A stretch of 64,000 nucleotides of DNA from Bacteroidia bacterium (GCA_041391725.1 JAWKNL010000032.1:1550-65549), one strand, 5' to 3'. Positions 16,139-22,843 are shown, counted from the first letter of the stretch. Numbers and translations: made by a program. The notes: generated by a model not told the origin, from the sequence alone.

Positions 16139-17257
16139 TTATTCCAGAAGCAGATCCAATTGTTTATCCCATTCGTCAAAAAAACCATCAGGCCACTCAT
16201 CTGCCCGGCCGGTAGCATCTATATGTATAGGAATAACACGGCTCGAATGATCGGGAGATTCAGCTTCTCGCTGGAAGTAATAGACTTTTGTATCCTCGTG
16301 TGAAAGCACGCCCTGCTTGATAGCCACCCTGATACCGTTCAGGATATGATCGCTGTGCGACTCCAACATAATTTGAGTGCCAGAGGCGGCTGCCAGTGCA
16401 CAAAGACGAGCGATCCTGGCCTGGCCTGCCGGATGCAGGTGCGACTCTGGGTTTTCGATGATCAATAACCCGCCGGGAGGCATCATCAACAATGCAGTGA
16501 TGATGGGCAGTACATAGGTGAGACCAAACCCCACATTGGTCGGTTTAAAACTTTCGGTATATCCGTTCTGTAACTCAAAGCTATAGGACAGGCTGGCAAC
16601 CTCCAGTTTTTCATGATAGGTCGCATTTACTTTTACTCCCGGAGATATTTCTGATAACCAGGCACTTACATTGTCCAGGAGAGTATCAGATTTAGCATCG
16701 GGATGCTGCAAATCCGGATTTGGCAGCGGACGGTTCTGGTGCCGGGCCAGATAATGCACGGTGTATTCGCCCTCTTTGCCCAGGGACACCAAATTATCTA
16801 CATGGTAAGTCGAGGTTTTATACTGCGTTTGCGGATTAATCCGGTTAGCGCCCAGGTAGTGGGTGTTGTCTGAAAACATAAAAGCCGCACCTAAGTCAAA
16901 GTCCTCGCTCCTTTCCCGCTTCGCTAAGGGCAATACATCCTTTTCAGCCGCCTGGTGAAAAGAAACTTCGAGTGTATGTGTATAATCCCACTCCAGCTCA
17001 AATGTTAATAACGCTTCGGCCGGGGCACCTATCGAAAAAACATCCTTGCCAAGGCCCAGGCTGAGCAAGTCATCGTCTTTGAGAAACAATCCCCGCTCAA
17101 AATCGCCGTTTCGCAGCGATTGCTGAAGCAACAACAAGGGCTGAATCGCTGAAGATTTACCTACGGCATTAATACCTGTGAACAGGTTGAGACGACCCAG
17201 TGAAAAGTCACCTTCAAGGATAGACTTAAAGTTCCTGATTTTCAGATTAGTAAGCAT
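16139..17257 (-). CDS. SMC/ABC-like AAA ATPase with DUF3696-type C-terminus
   Basis: NLKIRNFKSI...LFTGINAVGKSS (Walker A), LLIIENPESHLHP (Walker B/D-loop), ESHSDHILNG, C-terminal WPDGFFDEW. Start overlaps the upstream gene by 11 nt. Confidence 0.8.
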   Translation of the reverse strand: MLTNLKIRNFKSILEGDFSLGRLNLFTGINAVGKSSAIQPLLLLQQSLRNGDFERGLFLKDDDLLSLGLGKDVFSIGAPAEALLTFELEWDYTHTLEVSFHQAAEKDVLPLAKRERSEDFDLGAAFMFSDNTHYLGANRINPQTQYKTSTYHVDNLVSLGKEGEYTVHYLARHQNRPLPNPDLQHPDAKSDTLLDNVSAWLSEISPGVKVNATYHEKLEVASLSYSFELQNGYTESFKPTNVGFGLTYVLPIITALLMMPPGGLLIIENPESHLHPAGQARIARLCALAAASGTQIMLESHSDHILNGIRVAIKQGVLSHEDTKVYYFQREAESPDHSSRVIPIHIDATGRADEWPDGFFDEWDKQLDLLLE

Positions 17258-18356
17258 GGCCTGTATATTGGGTGATCAGTTTTTGTAACTCCCGGTGGCG
17301 CAACACTACGCTTTCCACCCGGTTGGTATTGGCCGTAATCGCAGCCTCAAAGTCTGGCTTACGCATCATGCCCAGGTAGCCAGAGATAAAGGCTTCTTTT
17401 TGGGACAGCAGTCGCTCCATCCCGGCATCTGTCAGATGGGCAAGATTTACCGCAGTCGTTTCAAACAGCGAGCGGTTGATCACGGGCTTGCCTTCCGGAT
17501 GGAGCAGCGCCTTGCTAAACATGTTCTGACCGAATAGCTGGTCGGCACGAACCAAGCTCCGGTGACAGGCTGCTGCCCATGCTGAACGCTCGGCATCGGT
17601 CGCTACCTCGTTGAGGTGCTCCATTTCCTCATCCAGAAACATACGCAGCGAAGGCTGATACTCGGCAGGTCCTCGCCGGTAGAAGGCAATAAACCTCAGC
17701 AACAATTCCCGGTCCAGCATACGCTTAGGCGATACCCCCAGATACTGTCTGAACCACGGCTCTTCGGCCACCTGATTCAAAAACCGGGTGGCAGGCCCCT
17801 GGTTCAGGGCATGCCGGATCTCCTGGGCGGTCATCTTGAGGCCCGCAGTATTGATACGATAAAACAGGTTCGTAAGCACTTTTTTAGGGGTGCCCTTCCT
17901 GATTTTAAAGAGCGTTACCTGGGTCCCTTCGATGCGGCGCTGCAAGGTGCGGTCCAGGCCGTCGTATTTTTTCCCTTCCAGCTCCTTCAAAAACTCCATG
18001 TGGCTCAGTTTCAGGTTTTTGTCCACCATAAACCGTTTAAAAGTAGAGAGCCGCTGTAAGCCATCCACCACCACCCATTTGTCGTCATTGGCTACGTCCA
18101 TGTAAAAAGCGGGAAGAGGAAGCTTGATCAGGATAGACTCGATAAGCTGGCTCATGCGCGTATTGTCCCACAGATTGGTGCTGCGCTGAAACTCAGGAAA
18201 GAGGTCTATTTCACCATGTCGGATCCTGTCCACCAGCGTAGCAACAGTGGCAGGCTCGACCGTAATGTCCACCTGCTTAGGGTCAAACGGAACCTGGATG
18301 GTAAACTCTCCTTCCTGATCGTCCTCTATGTCAAGGTATAGTTCGTTTTCTTTCAT
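17247..18356 (-). CDS. DUF262 (GmrSD N-terminal / ParB-Srx fold) protein without a DUF1524/HNH half
   Basis: IDLFPEFQR, VVVDGLQRLSTF (DGQQR motif), FYRINTAGLKMTAQEIRHAL. The helical C-terminal ~170 aa has no His-Me/HNH motif. Confidence 0.8.
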   Translation of the reverse strand: MKENELYLDIEDDQEGEFTIQVPFDPKQVDITVEPATVATLVDRIRHGEIDLFPEFQRSTNLWDNTRMSQLIESILIKLPLPAFYMDVANDDKWVVVDGLQRLSTFKRFMVDKNLKLSHMEFLKELEGKKYDGLDRTLQRRIEGTQVTLFKIRKGTPKKVLTNLFYRINTAGLKMTAQEIRHALNQGPATRFLNQVAEEPWFRQYLGVSPKRMLDRELLLRFIAFYRRGPAEYQPSLRMFLDEEMEHLNEVATDAERSAWAAACHRSLVRADQLFGQNMFSKALLHPEGKPVINRSLFETTAVNLAHLTDAGMERLLSQKEAFISGYLGMMRKPDFEAAITANTNRVESVVLRHRELQKLITQYTGHAY

Positions 18357-18391: not shown

Positions 18392-19765
18392 TCAAGATTG
18401 GGAAGTTTCATCCGTCACTTTTATTTTCCCCGTCACCGCACTATCGATCAGCGTGGCTTTGTATTCCTTGAGTTTTTCGATCTGGGTCTGCTGGAGGGTG
18501 ATGGCCTGGTCGATTTTGGCGGATTGGGTTTCGATGTGGGCGACGATTCCTAATTGCTCATTCTGAGGCGGAAGTACTGTTTGCAATTGTTTGAATTCAT
18601 CCCAATAAAGCCTTTTTCTAAAGTCTGTAATTCCCTTTGAATTTCTATTCATTTGCTGAATAAAAGAGTCAGTTCTATACTGATATTCAAAATATGATGC
18701 CACGATCTTTTTGTTAGGTTTTGCCACTACATAGGCAGGACTTACCATACCCTCAACACGAACCGCTCCAATTGCTCCTTGCCAGGCTCTCATCATATTA
18801 AAAACAATATCATTTATCGCTACATACTTGTAATTACTCTTGTCTTCAATCTTAATTAGCCCACGAATATTATCTTCATCAGATAATTCCTCAGAAGAAA
18901 CGGCTGAGTGAATAGAAACAGATAACAGTGGTAAATCCTCTCTGCCTGGTTCTTTTCGTTCTTTGAATAATATTCTGTTGGCTACCACCTCCCATCCCAC
19001 CGGAATCTGCCCAATCCATTCCACGCCTGAGTCTTTGAGTTTTTCTTTGGGAGTCATTGACCATTGACCATTCACCATTGACCATTTCCCCGTTACGGCA
19101 TTTTGGATGAGGATCTGTTTGCGTTCTTTGAGCAGGGCGATGAGTTTTTCTTTTTGGGTGATGGCCTGGTCTATTTTGGCGGTTTTGTCGTCGAGGAAGT
19201 TGGCGATGGCGGTTTGCTCTTCGGCATTTGGAAACCAAAAAGTAACGGTCTTTAATAATGTTTGGGTAATACTAAATACTTTAACCCCTTTAACTCGCGA
19301 TCTTATTTGATTGCGGAAACTTTGAGAAGTAATTACATAAGCTGCAAACCTTTCATTAACATGTATTTTTAATCTTGCTATTACAGTATGATAACCGGCA
19401 AATGTGCTTAGGTCACTATTCAAATAAGTGAAGTTCCCAGACCCTTCAATATCTTCAGATGTATCTGCGAAAACAAAATCTCCTTTACTAAGTAGTGAGT
19501 TCGAATCACTAAGCAAATATTCCTCGCTTACACATTTCAACTCATGAATTTCAGGATTGACTTCAAACCCAAATTTTGAATGTATTTCCCCATAATTGAC
19601 ACAATAAACGCCTTCCTCTTGTAGGTTTTCCTTCGTTATCGTTAAGCCCTTGCTGAAAGAGAAAATGTTTCTTAGGCGACTAACCTCCCAATGCTCCGGA
19701 ATCTCCCCGAGCCATTGCACGCCCGAATCTTTATATCGATCATATTTTTTAAACTGCATCATCAT
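18392..19765 (-). CDS. hsdS: type I R-M specificity subunit, two TRDs, intact
   Basis: Two half-repeats, each starting KDSGV(Q/E)W(L/I)G.IP..WEV. Conserved helical spacers (FLDDKTAKIDQAITQKEKLIALLKERKQ.. and KIDQAITLQQTQIEKLKEYK..). Start taken at the ATGATGATG cluster. Confidence 0.85.
   Translation of the reverse strand: MMMQFKKYDRYKDSGVQWLGEIPEHWEVSRLRNIFSFSKGLTITKENLQEEGVYCVNYGEIHSKFGFEVNPEIHELKCVSEEYLLSDSNSLLSKGDFVFADTSEDIEGSGNFTYLNSDLSTFAGYHTVIARLKIHVNERFAAYVITSQSFRNQIRSRVKGVKVFSITQTLLKTVTFWFPNAEEQTAIANFLDDKTAKIDQAITQKEKLIALLKERKQILIQNAVTGKWSMVNGQWSMTPKEKLKDSGVEWIGQIPVGWEVVANRILFKERKEPGREDLPLLSVSIHSAVSSEELSDEDNIRGLIKIEDKSNYKYVAINDIVFNMMRAWQGAIGAVRVEGMVSPAYVVAKPNKKIVASYFEYQYRTDSFIQQMNRNSKGITDFRKRLYWDEFKQLQTVLPPQNEQLGIVAHIETQSAKIDQAITLQQTQIEKLKEYKATLIDSAVTGKIKVTDETSQS
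19055..19089. repeat. heptanucleotide tandem repeat inside hsdS (CATTGAC x2, CATTCAC, CATTGAC, CATTTCC)
   Basis: Read directly. Encodes the GKWSMVNGQWSM linker between the central helix and TRD2. Confidence 0.9.
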
Positions 19766-19798
19766 TAGCAATTGACCATTAACAATTAACCATTAAAA
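19764..19798. repeat. heptanucleotide repeat (CATTAGC AATTGAC CATTAAC AATTAAC CATTAAA) overlapping the hsdS start
   Basis: Read directly. Same 7-nt register and family as 19055-19089 and the start of the 39173 array. Confidence 0.8.
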
Positions 19799-19858
19799 AA
19801 TCCATTCCACGCCGGAGTCTTGGTAAGCAGGATAGCTTGGGTAGTTATGCGTCGTCAT
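19793..19858 (-). pseudogene. 21-codon relic of an hsdS N-terminus (MTTHNYPSYPAYQDSGVEWIF*)
   Basis: 19799-19823 matches 19013-19037 (start of TRD2) at 23 of 25 nt. The reading frame is cut off by the heptamer array. Its ATG is embedded in the RayT 3' end. Confidence 0.55.
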
Positions 19859-20507
19859 GGTCGGGATTGTTTGGGTGATAGCGGTCGTCTCCCCAGCGTT
19901 GGGGATTTTGCCGGATATAGAATTCGACGCGGTCATAAGAGGCCTGGTCGCGGATGATGTGGTCATAAAACCGTTCCTGCCAGTTAAAATCAGGGGTGGT
20001 TTTCCTGATTTCAAAGGTACAGCGCCCCTTGTACCAGCGCATCACGCGGGATAGGTTGTCGTACAGCATGGGGTTGTGGTGGCCGGTGATGCCGCCGGGA
20101 TCACGGACGGTTGTATGATCCGTAGAGACGCGATTAATCGCGTCTCTACCAGGCGGATCATCAGGATGATCGATGATCACGATGCCGTGGATGTGATTGG
20201 GCATCACGACCCATTCCCCCAGACGGGCATAGGGAAATCGTTCGGGGATTTCCTGCCAGTGCCGTGCCGCGATTTCGCCTGGTTCGGACAATTGGACGCG
20301 GAATTGGGTTGGGTCGGTTGGTTCCGTTGGTAGAGACGCGATTAATCGCGTCTCTACAGGGGGATCGGTGATTGGTACGACGTCCGCGAAATGACACCGG
20401 TGGTCTATGACGCAAATGGTGACAAAATAGGCGGCGTTCCAGCCGTAGTCCCACCAAGGGGCACGGGCGGAGGGGATTCGGTATTTGCCGTTGAATTTTT
20501 CTGCCAT
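19845..20507 (-). CDS. REP-associated tyrosine transposase-like (Y1/HUH, IS200-like fold)
   Basis: YFVTICV, HUH motif MPNHIHGIV, NLSRVMRWYKGRCTFEIRK, WQERFYDHIIRD, catalytic-Tyr region FYIRQNPQRW. ATG lies 2 nt after the hsdM stop. Confidence 0.8.
   Translation of the reverse strand: MAEKFNGKYRIPSARAPWWDYGWNAAYFVTICVIDHRCHFADVVPITDPPVETRLIASLPTEPTDPTQFRVQLSEPGEIAARHWQEIPERFPYARLGEWVVMPNHIHGIVIIDHPDDPPGRDAINRVSTDHTTVRDPGGITGHHNPMLYDNLSRVMRWYKGRCTFEIRKTTPDFNWQERFYDHIIRDQASYDRVEFYIRQNPQRWGDDRYHPNNPDHDDA
20122..20149. repeat. 28-bp perfect palindrome GTAGAGACGCGATTAATCGCGTCTCTAC (copy 1)
   Basis: Read directly. Lies in the RayT ORF and is translated as RDAINRVST. Confidence 0.95.
20330..20357. 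repeat. 28-bp perfect palindrome GTAGAGACGCGATTAATCGCGTCTCTAC (copy 2)
   Basis: Identical to copy 1. Lies in the RayT ORF but is read in another frame as VETRLIASL. Both copies are preceded (coding sense) by GATCC(G/C)CCT. Confidence 0.95.
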
Positions 20508-20509
20508 GT

Positions 20510-22843
20510 CTATTTCCCTAAAATGTCCCTGATCAGTCCATCGCTTTCTTTGTCCAGCGCCAGGATTTCGGCGCTGACTTCCTCTATACTCCGCAGGGGC
20601 TTATGCTGGTAGAAGTATTTATTGAAGCTGATTTCATAACCGATTTTGGTTTTGTCGAGGTCGATCCAGGCTTCGGGCACGTGGGGTTTTACCTCGCGCA
20701 GGAAATAATCGTAGATGCTTTCTTCCAGCGGCACATTTTCGCTGTCGCGGAGGTCGGTTTGGTTTTCGTAAATGATGTATTCGTCCCTGTTTCCGCTGGG
20801 GTAGTATCCAAAGTCAGGCAATTGCGCCACCGTACAATCGAGGTGAAACAGGAGTTGGTCAAGTTTCTCACCACTGAGCTTTTGGGTTTTTTTGATCACC
20901 TTTTCAGCACTTTCATCATACCAGCTCACAGCTTGCAGGATGGCATTTTTTTCACTGGCAGAAAGTTTGGATTTACTCGCTTTGAGGTTCATCATCCACC
21001 CATTTGGCAAACACATTAAAATCGCTGTATTCCTGGTTGCCAATGGTTTCCATCAGTTTTGTGGCAGTGTTTAATATTTCTTTTTGTTTTTTCCATGTAG
21101 CAGCAGACGTGAGGGTTTTGCGCTTTTTGGCGTTCAGATCGATGTCGTTTTTCTCGCACCATTCCGGGAGTGCTTTTTCAATAGACTTCAGGTCTGAATA
21201 CACCTTTTCGCCAAAGGTTTCCAGGCCCATTGCATCGGTTCTTTGAGTGTTTTATCGAATCGAAGATCCGCAATACGTTCGGTAAACTGCGCTTTCAGTC
21301 TCGCCGGGCGGTCAATGGTTACTTTATAATATAAATCACTGTTGTTAAATACTATGGCGGCCAGGCCGTCTTCGCCTTGCCGCTCAATTGTTTCAAAATT
21401 CAGATACGCATCCTGGATTTCTTTGATGTGCTGTGGGCTCAATTCACAGTTTTTGTTACCCAGGTTTTTGCGCAGTTTGGCAAAACGTTGGGAAGCATCA
21501 ATGAGCAATACTTTGCCTTTACGCTTAGTTTCTTTATTGTTATGCAATAGCCAGATATACGTAGTAATACCTGTATTATAAAACAGGTTGTTGGGGAGTT
21601 GGATGATGCAGTCCAGCCAATCATTTTCAATGATGTATCTTCTGATATTGCTTTCCACCACCGGCATCACCCGTAAACAGACTGGAACCATTGTGTACCA
21701 GGCAATACGCGAACCCAGTGGGCTTTGGTGGAGGGGCTTCATTTTATTGACCATCTCCATCAGGATGAGCAATTGCCCGTCAGACGAACGAGGGGTAGCA
21801 TCCGCTTCTTCTGCATTATCCCAATAATCTTTTAGGGTAACCACAAAGCAGGGTCAATGATGCTGTTGCCGTCTTTGATGTATTTTACTTCGCTGCTCCA
21901 GGACTTGCCATAGGGTGGATTGGAGAGCATGAAGTCGAAATTGTGGCCGGAAAACTCATCGGTGGAAAGGGTAGAACCCACGCGGATATTTTCAGGGTTG
22001 TTGCCCTTAATCATCATATCCGATTTGCAAATGGCGTAGGTTTCGTCATTGATTTCCTTGCCGTATAAATACACATCACCCTTAGCACGGATTTCGCCTT
22101 CTTCGTCTTTGATGAAATTCTGCGATTCAGTCAGCATGCCACCCGAACCACAAGCTAGGTCGTAGATGGTCATCACCGGCGGCAATTGATCTTTGATCGG
22201 GTCAAACACAATATGGGTCATCAGATCAATTACTTCACGGGGCGTAAAGTGTTCTCCGCTTCTTCGTTGTTTTCTTCGTTGAATTTTCGGATAAGCTCTT
22301 CAAAGACATACCCCATTCCGAGATTGGAAAGAAGGGGTTGTTTTCTTCCGTCAGGGTCTTCTTTTCAAAAGGAGTGAGGTTGATGTGAGGAGAAGTGAAT
22401 TTTTCAAGGACATCGAGAAGCACATCTTTTGAAGCCATGTGCCGGATCTGACTTTTGAGCTTAAATTTCTCAATAATTTCCTTCACGTTTTGGCTAAAGC
22501 CATTGAGATATTCTTCAAAGTTGGCTTGCAAAATTTGCTGGCTGTTGGTAGCAGTTTCACATAGTCTTTGCAAAGTCCATTCGCTGGTATTGTAAAATAC
22601 ATAGCCACTTGCATCGCGCAGGCCCGCTTCGTCACATTCAGCAAGGCCGACTTCGTCTCGTTGGAAAGCGAATTCTTCCAAAACGGCTTCTTTGGTAGGT
22701 TCGAGCAAAGCATCTAATCTTCTCAAGACTACCATGGGCAGAATAACGTCTCTGTATTTCCCTCTTACATATACGTCTCTAAGACAATCGTCCGCTATGG
22801 ACCAGATAAAGGATATCAGTCTATTGTGTACAGATTGGTTCAT
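20510..22843 (-). pseudogene. hsdM: type I R-M DNA methyltransferase subunit, broken by multiple frameshifts
   Basis: HsdM_N start MNQSVHNRLISFIWSIADDCLRDVY..VILPMVVLRRLD. GEHFTPREVIDLMTHIV. DLACGSGGML (motif I). FDFMLSNPPYG (motif IV). NNLFYNTGITTYIWLL. C-terminal GYEISFNKYFY. These are spread over at least 6 frame segments (ORFs 22235-22843, 21832-22221, 21188-21844, 20973-21230, 20510-21043). Confidence 0.85.

Follow-up and report, generated by a model that had tools for sequence, protein, structure and literature searches.

The substrates of TnpA-REP, the tyrosine transposase associated with repetitive extragenic palindromes (REPs) that is also called RayT or RAYT, are defined by a GTAG foot beside a hairpin, and in subclass 2.4 of these enzymes REPs have been found inserted in frame within the tnpA-REP gene itself, mostly in the segment from HuH to Y (Quentin, Siguier, Chandler and Fichant, 2018; BMC Genomics 19:475; PMC6006769). 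The same authors define subclass 2.4, which corresponds to RAYT group 4 and occurs mainly in Cyanobacteria and Bacteroidetes, by the motifs NH[IFV]H (the HuH motif, in their Table 1), WQ and YIxNNP, and describe its REPs as double-foot repeats in which GT[AG]G at the 5′ end is matched at the 3′ end by its reverse complement, C[TC]AC. The beta3-alphaC insertion of these proteins is highly variable in length owing to short DNA repeats, and the region has been modelled away from the DNA-binding and catalytic sites (PMC6006769). In this study, we analysed a RayT gene of this subclass that carries two copies of one perfect palindrome in its open reading frame (ORF) and lies in a stretch of 64,000 nucleotides (nt) from a Bacteroidia bacterium (GCA_041391725.1, JAWKNL010000032.1:1550-65549), hereafter the window, to which all REP counts for the source organism refer. 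The name RAYT group 4 reportedly goes back to Bertels and colleagues in 2017.

In-frame REPs within their own RayT gene are a family trait published in 2018, and the window gene is one more example of it. Our additions are quantitative and reveal no new kind of system; they concern the occupancy of the insertion sites, the reading frames used, the concerted variants of the repeat, its turnover between orthologs and an insertion at a second site (site 1) accompanied by 9-nt arrays. A full-text literature search with the encoded peptides and the DNA core returned no paper, and the phenomenon was located through RAYT and REP keywords. The locus resembles subclass 2.4 in its HuH, W-Q and Y motifs, its origin in Bacteroidota, its double-foot GTAG...CTAC REP, the in-frame position of a REP in the beta3-alphaC region and the variable length of that region owing to short DNA repeats. 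It differs in having a second REP in the beta1-alphaA loop, a rare position that the text of the 2018 paper (PMC6006769) does not give for the subclass, in having no flanking REPs in the window, and thus no REPtron, a gene flanked by cognate REPs within about 1 kb, and in being packed between hsdM and hsdS of a type I restriction-modification (R-M) operon.

The TnpA-REP of E. coli, with its REPs and bacterial interspersed mosaic elements (4ER8; RAYT group 2, subclass 2.2), is the best structural and sequence match of the window protein and shares with it the HUH/Y1 fold and the GTAG at the hairpin foot. E. coli REPs, unlike those of the window, are bulged, single-foot, high-copy and extragenic and do not lie within the tnpA-REP gene, and the window protein falls below the NCBIfam equivalog cut-off. 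The TnpA proteins of IS200/IS605 elements (IS608, ISDra2) also have a Y1 HUH domain acting on single-stranded DNA hairpins, but their left-end and right-end hairpins lie outside the ORF and bound a mobile unit that includes the gene, whereas the ORF of the window contains its hairpins and gives no indication that the gene itself moves. Short palindromes in frame at tolerated positions, adding 10-30 residues, are likewise described for Rickettsia palindromic elements (RPEs) (Ogata et al., 2000, as cited in PMC3733652) and other intragenic REPs (Di Nocera et al., 2013). The RPEs are longer and occupy many unrelated host genes, whereas in the present case the repeat resides in the gene of the enzyme presumed to mobilise it, in a loop used family-wide. 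Di Nocera et al. (2013) also report GTAG REPs inside other genes and relate RPE-4 and RPE-6, the in-frame intragenic elements of Rickettsia, to CGTC-type repeats.

A RayT gene with two in-frame REPs

From its motifs and modelled fold, the ORF is predicted to encode an intact HUH/Y1 enzyme acting on single-stranded DNA and belonging to TnpA-REP subclass 2.4, or RAYT group 4. The catalytic signature comprises PNHIHGIV (residues 103-110, with H105 and H107), NWQERF (W176, Q177) and YIRQNP (Y197, N201, P202). P103, H105 and H107 are invariant in a 65-sequence family alignment, and the window protein has all invariant residues of that alignment. The subclass motifs appear as NHIH, WQ and YIRQNP, the last of which differs from YIxNNP at one position (Q for the first N), while relatives show YIxNNP. 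A profile built from 65 homologues had one sequence match in PDB, the E. coli TnpA-REP 4ER8 (E 8e-7), and an AlphaFold2 (AF2) model with a predicted local distance difference test (pLDDT) score of 83 had the same structure as its top Foldseek match (E 1.3e-5), followed by the TnpA proteins of IS608, ISDra2 and IS200. A 100% identical protein (P0001) is titled 'MAG: transposase [Bacteroidia bacterium]' (MAG, metagenome-assembled genome). Four weak matches (26-36% identity) were obtained when 72,556 plasmid records were searched with the protein, and these records gave no sign of a plasmid-borne element.

The palindrome, GTAGAGACGCGATTAATCGCGTCTCTAC, is 28 nt long and occurs twice in this ORF, 208 nt apart from start to start (Table 1). 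Each copy is a perfect 14+14 palindrome, and no further match was found in the window with up to 3 mismatches allowed, where shuffled sequences lead to an expectation of 0. The site-1 copy occupies nt 151-178 of the coding sequence (codons 51-59, VETRLIASL) and the site-2 copy nt 359-386 (codons 120-129, G120 followed by RDAINRVST). Since 208 is not a multiple of 3, the two copies are read in different frames, and since a TAG interrupts the third frame on either strand, only these two readings of the REP are possible within an ORF. An earlier reading of this DNA, made without database searches (the sequence-only reading), had reported both palindromes inside a 220-residue ORF and the two peptides from two frames, and exact matching and translation agree with it; the overlapping noise ORFs that it listed at 20076-20333 (+) and 20161-20457 (-) both contain RDAINRVST.

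The layout GTAG-AGACGCGAT-TA-ATCGCGTCT-CTAC is that of a double-foot REP, a GC-rich hairpin with the guide tetranucleotide GTAG at its 5′ foot and the mirrored CTAC at its 3′ foot. On the coding strand, both copies are preceded by a flank of the form GATCC(C/G)CCT, which is GATCCCCCT at site 1 and GATCCGCCT with an extra G at site 2; the shared flank from which a unit of about 37 nt had been proposed is real, with a 1-nt offset that the proposal did not include. Folded as DNA, the two REP hairpins reach -13.9 and -19.1 kcal/mol (z = -6.6 and -8.1), the second value being that of the extended hairpin at site 2, in which an outer stem ATGATCCG/CGGATCAT pairs 20154-20161 with 20115-20122 and leaves a 5-nt bulge. 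No Rfam family matched positions 19500-20800 at E ≤ 1, which indicates that the palindrome region is not a known structured RNA. Matched as inverted repeats, the two copies extend to 30 nt. The perfect arms so formed (20122-20151 and 20328-20357) enclose a 176-nt spacer encoding the HUH motif, a REPIN-like geometry in which inversion or excision between the arms would inactivate the RayT gene.

Both inserts, for which the sequence-only reading had proposed mapping on a RAYT/TnpA structure, fall in low-confidence loops of the AF2 model. Site 1 forms the tip (residues 46-68) of a beta-hairpin with strands 41-45 and 69-73, between beta1 and alphaA. Site 2 lies in the loop that connects the HUH strand (105-112) to the helix 152-167; this loop (113-151) is the beta3-alphaC variable region where subclass 2.4 carries its in-frame REPs. 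The suggestion that a REP-like hairpin of the gene's own family had entered these loops with the frame intact is borne out by the subclass 2.4 motifs and fold, by the GTAG...CTAC double foot, by the use of the same loop in most relatives and by the occurrence of the repeat in flanking arrays and as dispersed, mostly extragenic copies.

REP copies within, beside and away from related genes

Because the first protein search was word-indexed and possibly biased to palindrome-coded peptides, relatives were re-sampled through the C-terminal 83-87 residues or C-terminal motifs only. The two samples comprised 64 full-length representatives at 50% identity and 69 complete genes on metagenome contigs, and an intragenic core was scored as GACGCGAT..ATCGCGTC with at most 2 mismatches. 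At least one core copy was present in 61 of the 69 metagenome genes, nearly all at site 2; three had a site-1 copy, and no REP copy was seen in the 69 genes at positions other than these two. The exact 28-mer of the window was the commonest intragenic form in this sample (24 of 99 copies). REP arrays, the feature of a REPtron, lay within approximately 500 nt on either side of 49 of the 69 genes, and the REP density was 2.2 copies/kb inside genes versus 0.4/kb averaged over all flanking sequence, where the copies cluster beside the gene.

Among the 64 representatives, a peptide clearly encoded by a REP followed the HUH motif in 28, and in three one preceded it; many carried decayed versions, and about 17 had none. 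The site-2 peptide was found 22 times in the RDAINRVST frame (F3) and 14 times in the VETRLIASL frame (F1) in these proteins, F1 was the majority frame at site 2 in the metagenome sample, and RDAINRVST is part of the majority consensus of the family alignment. Most relatives carry the palindrome at the same loop in one or the other open frame, in agreement with the family trait of Bacteroidota and cyanobacteria that the sequence-only reading had suggested; the palindrome is no one-off, and its palindromic nature is kept in relatives.

The 20-nt core is 94% identical in pairwise comparisons of 62 genes, a value biased upward because the copies were chosen by core similarity; in the most conserved protein motifs (HUH, RWYKG and NPM), identity at third codon positions is just 55-60%. 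Stem variants change symmetrically (GGGAC/GTCCC, GAGGC/GCCTC, CGCAAT/ATTGCG). The variant inside a gene is that of the local flanking copies, for example GTAGGGAC...GTCCCTAC in locus L215 and a single-foot ATTTAT form in locus L170, which suggests that local copies exchange sequence or are homogenised. In loci L154, L159, L163, L178, L213 and L219, the site-2 palindrome is perfect over 44-52 nt, its outer arms beyond GTAG/CTAC being specific to the lineage; template switching and insertion into existing hairpins are possibilities for the origin of these longer palindromes.

The inserts turn over between orthologs. The closest relative (P0002, locus L228) has the same hsdM–RayT–hsdS–GmrSD–AAA context and about 92% core identity. 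Its site-1 palindrome is identical at 28 of 28 positions, its downstream flank contains 23 units of CCAACCGAC encoding (PTD/PTE)n, compared with 2.7 units in the window, and upstream of site 1 it has several 9-nt units of the type GATCCSCCG, of which the window flank GATCCCCCT represents one. At site 2, this ortholog has three REP copies, two of them decayed, compared with one in the window, and its ORF remains open despite the expansions (329 residues). Genes with 99-100% identical cores differ in REP number (2 versus 5, as in L170 and L195 at 99% core identity, and 2 versus 3), and at 90% core identity there is a presence/absence pair (none in L205, one in L208). The reading frame of the REP is mostly common to nearest neighbours. 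Judged from these comparisons, site 2 appears to combine an old, mostly inherited occupancy with rapid local remodelling, and the occupancy of site 1 appears sporadic. The 9-nt arrays beside site 1, in the window and at L228 5692-5744 and 5773-5982, are all in frame (the window array is at 20308-20331); upstream and downstream units are approximately reverse complements of one another, and the site-1 REP is the centre of a larger quasi-palindrome.

The repeat also occurs dispersed outside RayT genes. The stem pattern GTAGAGACGCG-N6-CGCGTCTCTAC was found in at least 120 genome-collection loci from Cyanobacteria, Bacteroidota, Chloroflexi, phyla of the candidate phyla radiation and others, as well as in 27 viral-collection contigs, none of which has a RayT gene near the stem. 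Among the matches listed, 4 of 124 stem copies lay inside RayT genes and 4 more had a RayT match in the same locus (3 within 100 nt, 1 about 2.5 kb off), and no locus among these matches had a pair 208 nt apart inside a RayT gene as in the window. Dispersed copies fell in open frames of at least 200 codons in 22% of cases, versus 73% of random positions. The flanks of 151 distinct dispersed copies shared only a T at -1 (54%), and no IS608-like target motif was found in them; with flanks otherwise unrelated, the repeat unit is essentially a 28-30-mer. Most of the variable loops (ATTAAT, ATGCAT, CCATGG, AAATTT and others) are in turn palindromes, and approximately 7% of the dispersed copies lie within longer palindromes. 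An identical 11-bp stem with differing central 6 nt is present in Cyanobacteria, Bacteroidota, Chloroflexi, Parcubacteria, Moranbacteria, Gracilibacteria, Binatia and Spirochaetes (e.g., L037-L107). REPs are normally lineage-specific, and stem identity across phyla is unusual.

Proposed entry and persistence of the repeats in the gene

The palindromes are probably the gene's own cognate REPs, located in tolerant loops and in stop-free frames, homogenised with local copies and altered in number by slippage. REPs would accumulate around the RayT gene and, in subclass 2.4, inside it, entering either through RAYT-mediated insertion on nearby single-stranded DNA or through recombination or gene conversion with neighbouring copies. 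Copies would survive only where the protein tolerates the residues, that is, at the tip of the beta1-alphaA hairpin (site 1) and in the beta3-alphaC loop (site 2), and only when read in one of the two frames free of TAG. Once inserted, they may behave as unstable passengers whose number shifts and whose old copies decay, while the adjacent 9-nt repeats would grow and shrink in frame through slippage and exchange within the local REP family would keep the inserted sequence uniform. Along with this mechanism of insertion and homogenisation, we infer that a selected function is absent.

Several observations weigh against this explanation. No extragenic copy, flanking REP array or half-site cluster was found in the window, so that the gene forms no REPtron there, and a genomic REP population in the source organism is putative; this absence is weak evidence, since the repeat abundance of RAYT group 4 is reported to be low, the flanking 16-mer occurring about 14 times per replicon (PMC5581495). 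Perfect palindromes make up 31% of intragenic versus 13% of flanking copies, and the near-universal occupancy of site 2, together with 94% nucleotide identity across proteins that are about 50% identical, exceeds what would be predicted for purely neutral passengers. The occupancy of site 2, the high nucleotide identity and the excess of perfect intragenic copies together leave room for selection on a DNA or RNA hairpin. The family assignment has its own difficulty: the sole family matches of the window protein, NCBIfam REP_Tyr_transpos (NF047646) and Pfam Y1_Tnp (PF01797), reach 45 bits (cut-off 80) and 19.5 bits (cut-off 23), and after in silico excision of both inserts the scores are 48 and 18 bits, still below the cut-offs. 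Because excision leaves the scores low and insert-poor relatives likewise reach only 51-57 bits against NF047646, the low hidden Markov model (HMM) scores reflect divergence of the subclass and not the inserts; the whole of subclass 2.4, and not the window gene alone, appears to fall outside the NF047646 equivalog model.

The alternative that fares best, which we nevertheless consider unlikely, is that the intragenic hairpins are selected cis elements, either an operator or mRNA hairpin limiting RayT expression or a seed or master REP that would ensure joint inheritance and transfer of enzyme and substrate. Retained cis elements, for autoregulation or transposition, were the second possibility named in the sequence-only reading. 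Selection would agree with the occupancy of site 2 in 61 of 69 genes, the REP-coded peptide in the family consensus, the excess of core identity over that at synonymous-type positions, the greater perfection of intragenic than of flanking copies and the strong stability of the hairpins. It would also suit the window gene, which lost or never had flanking REPs and keeps two perfect copies, and the site-1 palindrome, which is unchanged between orthologs whose flanks were remodelled. However, about a quarter of the diverse representatives show no trace of the palindrome and many have decayed remnants, near-identical genes differ in copy number, and homogenisation with flanking copies accounts for the conservation without a function. 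We regard it as quite unlikely that the beta3-alphaC REP is a maintained seed or operator with which RayT would carry its substrate on each horizontal transfer and may sense or limit its own expression. If true, this would explain how the 20-nt core stays at 94% identity in different phyla when protein identity has fallen to about 50%, and why a RayT stripped of flanking REPs, such as the one in this R-M operon, has two perfect copies.

It is very improbable that the repeat is an independent miniature element, or the product of a slippage or template-switching hotspot, unrelated to RayT. Among the matches listed, most dispersed copies have no RayT within their 8-kb loci, and the slippage arrays beside the site-1 copy and the dispersed copies within longer palindromes would also suit such an origin. 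Nevertheless, the same repeat is arrayed beside 49 of the 69 subclass 2.4 genes with the density difference given above, its local variants co-vary with the gene locus, and the GTAG foot beside the hairpin is the TnpA-REP substrate signature (PMC6006769; 4ER8). Scarcely credible, finally, is an ordinary conserved protein motif, GRDAINRVST, with incidental palindromy: RDAINRVST does stand in the majority family consensus, but the two-frame use of one DNA sequence (at the same site among relatives and within the window gene) and the identical 28-mers common outside RayT genes, mostly extragenic, led us to reject conservation at the protein level, and the symmetrical stem variants and the position of both segments in low-confidence AF2 loops also speak against it. 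An assembly artefact was rejected as well, since many independent assemblies, and the ortholog too, show the same structure.

The locus offers a clean example, together with its ortholog, of a domesticated-type transposase gene hosting its own presumed substrate repeats in frame, and the numbers on occupancy, variants and turnover make the choice between passenger and selected cis element testable. The palindrome also brings pitfalls for annotation: peptides that recur (RDAINRVST, VETRLIASL), overlapping ORFs that are spurious, and HMM scores below threshold.

The surrounding type I R-M operon

The RayT start codon (20505-20507) lies 2 nt after the stop codon (20510-20512) of an hsdM-type ORF, this stop being that of the C-terminal 177-residue piece. 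The junction, TAGACATG, is identical in the window and in L228, which indicates an inherited operon arrangement. The 2-nt spacing, from which the sequence-only reading had concluded a very precise insertion, stands, but a junction common to the ortholog is not a fresh scar. The GC content is 55-57% in the RayT gene versus 36-49% in its R-M neighbours. No empty hsdM-hsdS site was found among the contexts retrieved, the closest of which were L228 (with RayT) and Cyclobacterium (with an ORF6N-domain gene).

Table 1. Positions of the RayT gene, its REPs and adjoining features, counted from the first nucleotide of the window
Feature	Position	Strand	Basis
RayT / TnpA-REP gene, subclass 2.4 (RAYT group 4), predicted 220 aa, catalytic motifs intact	19845..20507	-	motifs, HMMs, fold
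Site-1 REP, 28-nt double-foot palindrome, reads VETRLIASL	20330..20357	.	exact match, DNA fold, AF2 model
Site-2 REP, same 28-mer, reads (G)RDAINRVST	20122..20149	.	exact match, DNA fold, AF2 model
Extended imperfect hairpin enclosing site-2 REP	20115..20161	.	DNA fold
GATCCCCCT (DPP) flank, precedes site-1 REP on coding strand	20358..20366	-	
GATCCGCCT+G, site-2 counterpart of the GATCCCCCT flank	20150-20159		
9-nt tandem repeat, 2.7 units, beside site-1 REP, codes PTE/PTD	20308..20331	.	
hsdM C-terminal piece (type I R-M methylase)	20510..21043	-	
hsdS (type I specificity subunit), downstream of RayT	18392..19771	-	

The hsdM gene of the window is split into at least 4-5 ORFs on the minus strand, with HsdM_N at 22235-22843, N6_Mtase at 21832-22221 and 21188-21844, and C-terminal pieces at 20973-21230 and 20510-21043, whereas the ortholog has an hsdM of 646 residues. 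The split gene (20510-22843) is either a pseudogene or the result of frameshift errors in the assembly. Overlapping the RayT stop, the minus strand of the window at 19793-19858 encodes '...MTTHNYPSYPAYQDSGVEWIF*', a remnant of the hsdS N-terminus. This N-terminus is intact in L228, which has a 14-nt overlap between the hsdS ATG and the RayT stop (L228 6527-6540), and the working hsdS of the window starts anew further downstream; its N-terminal part seems to have been swapped by recombination.

Downstream of hsdS are a GmrSD_N-domain gene (17247-18356, minus strand) and an AAA_21/AAA_15/DUF3696 ATPase gene (16139-17257, minus strand), which place RayT in a defence island. The gene order is common to L228 and in part to Cyclobacterium jeungdonense (L230, JAUFQS010000017.1). 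In the latter, an ORF6N-domain gene (L230 4665-5540) fills the slot between hsdM and hsdS, which suggests that accessory genes have repeatedly landed at the hsdM-hsdS junction.

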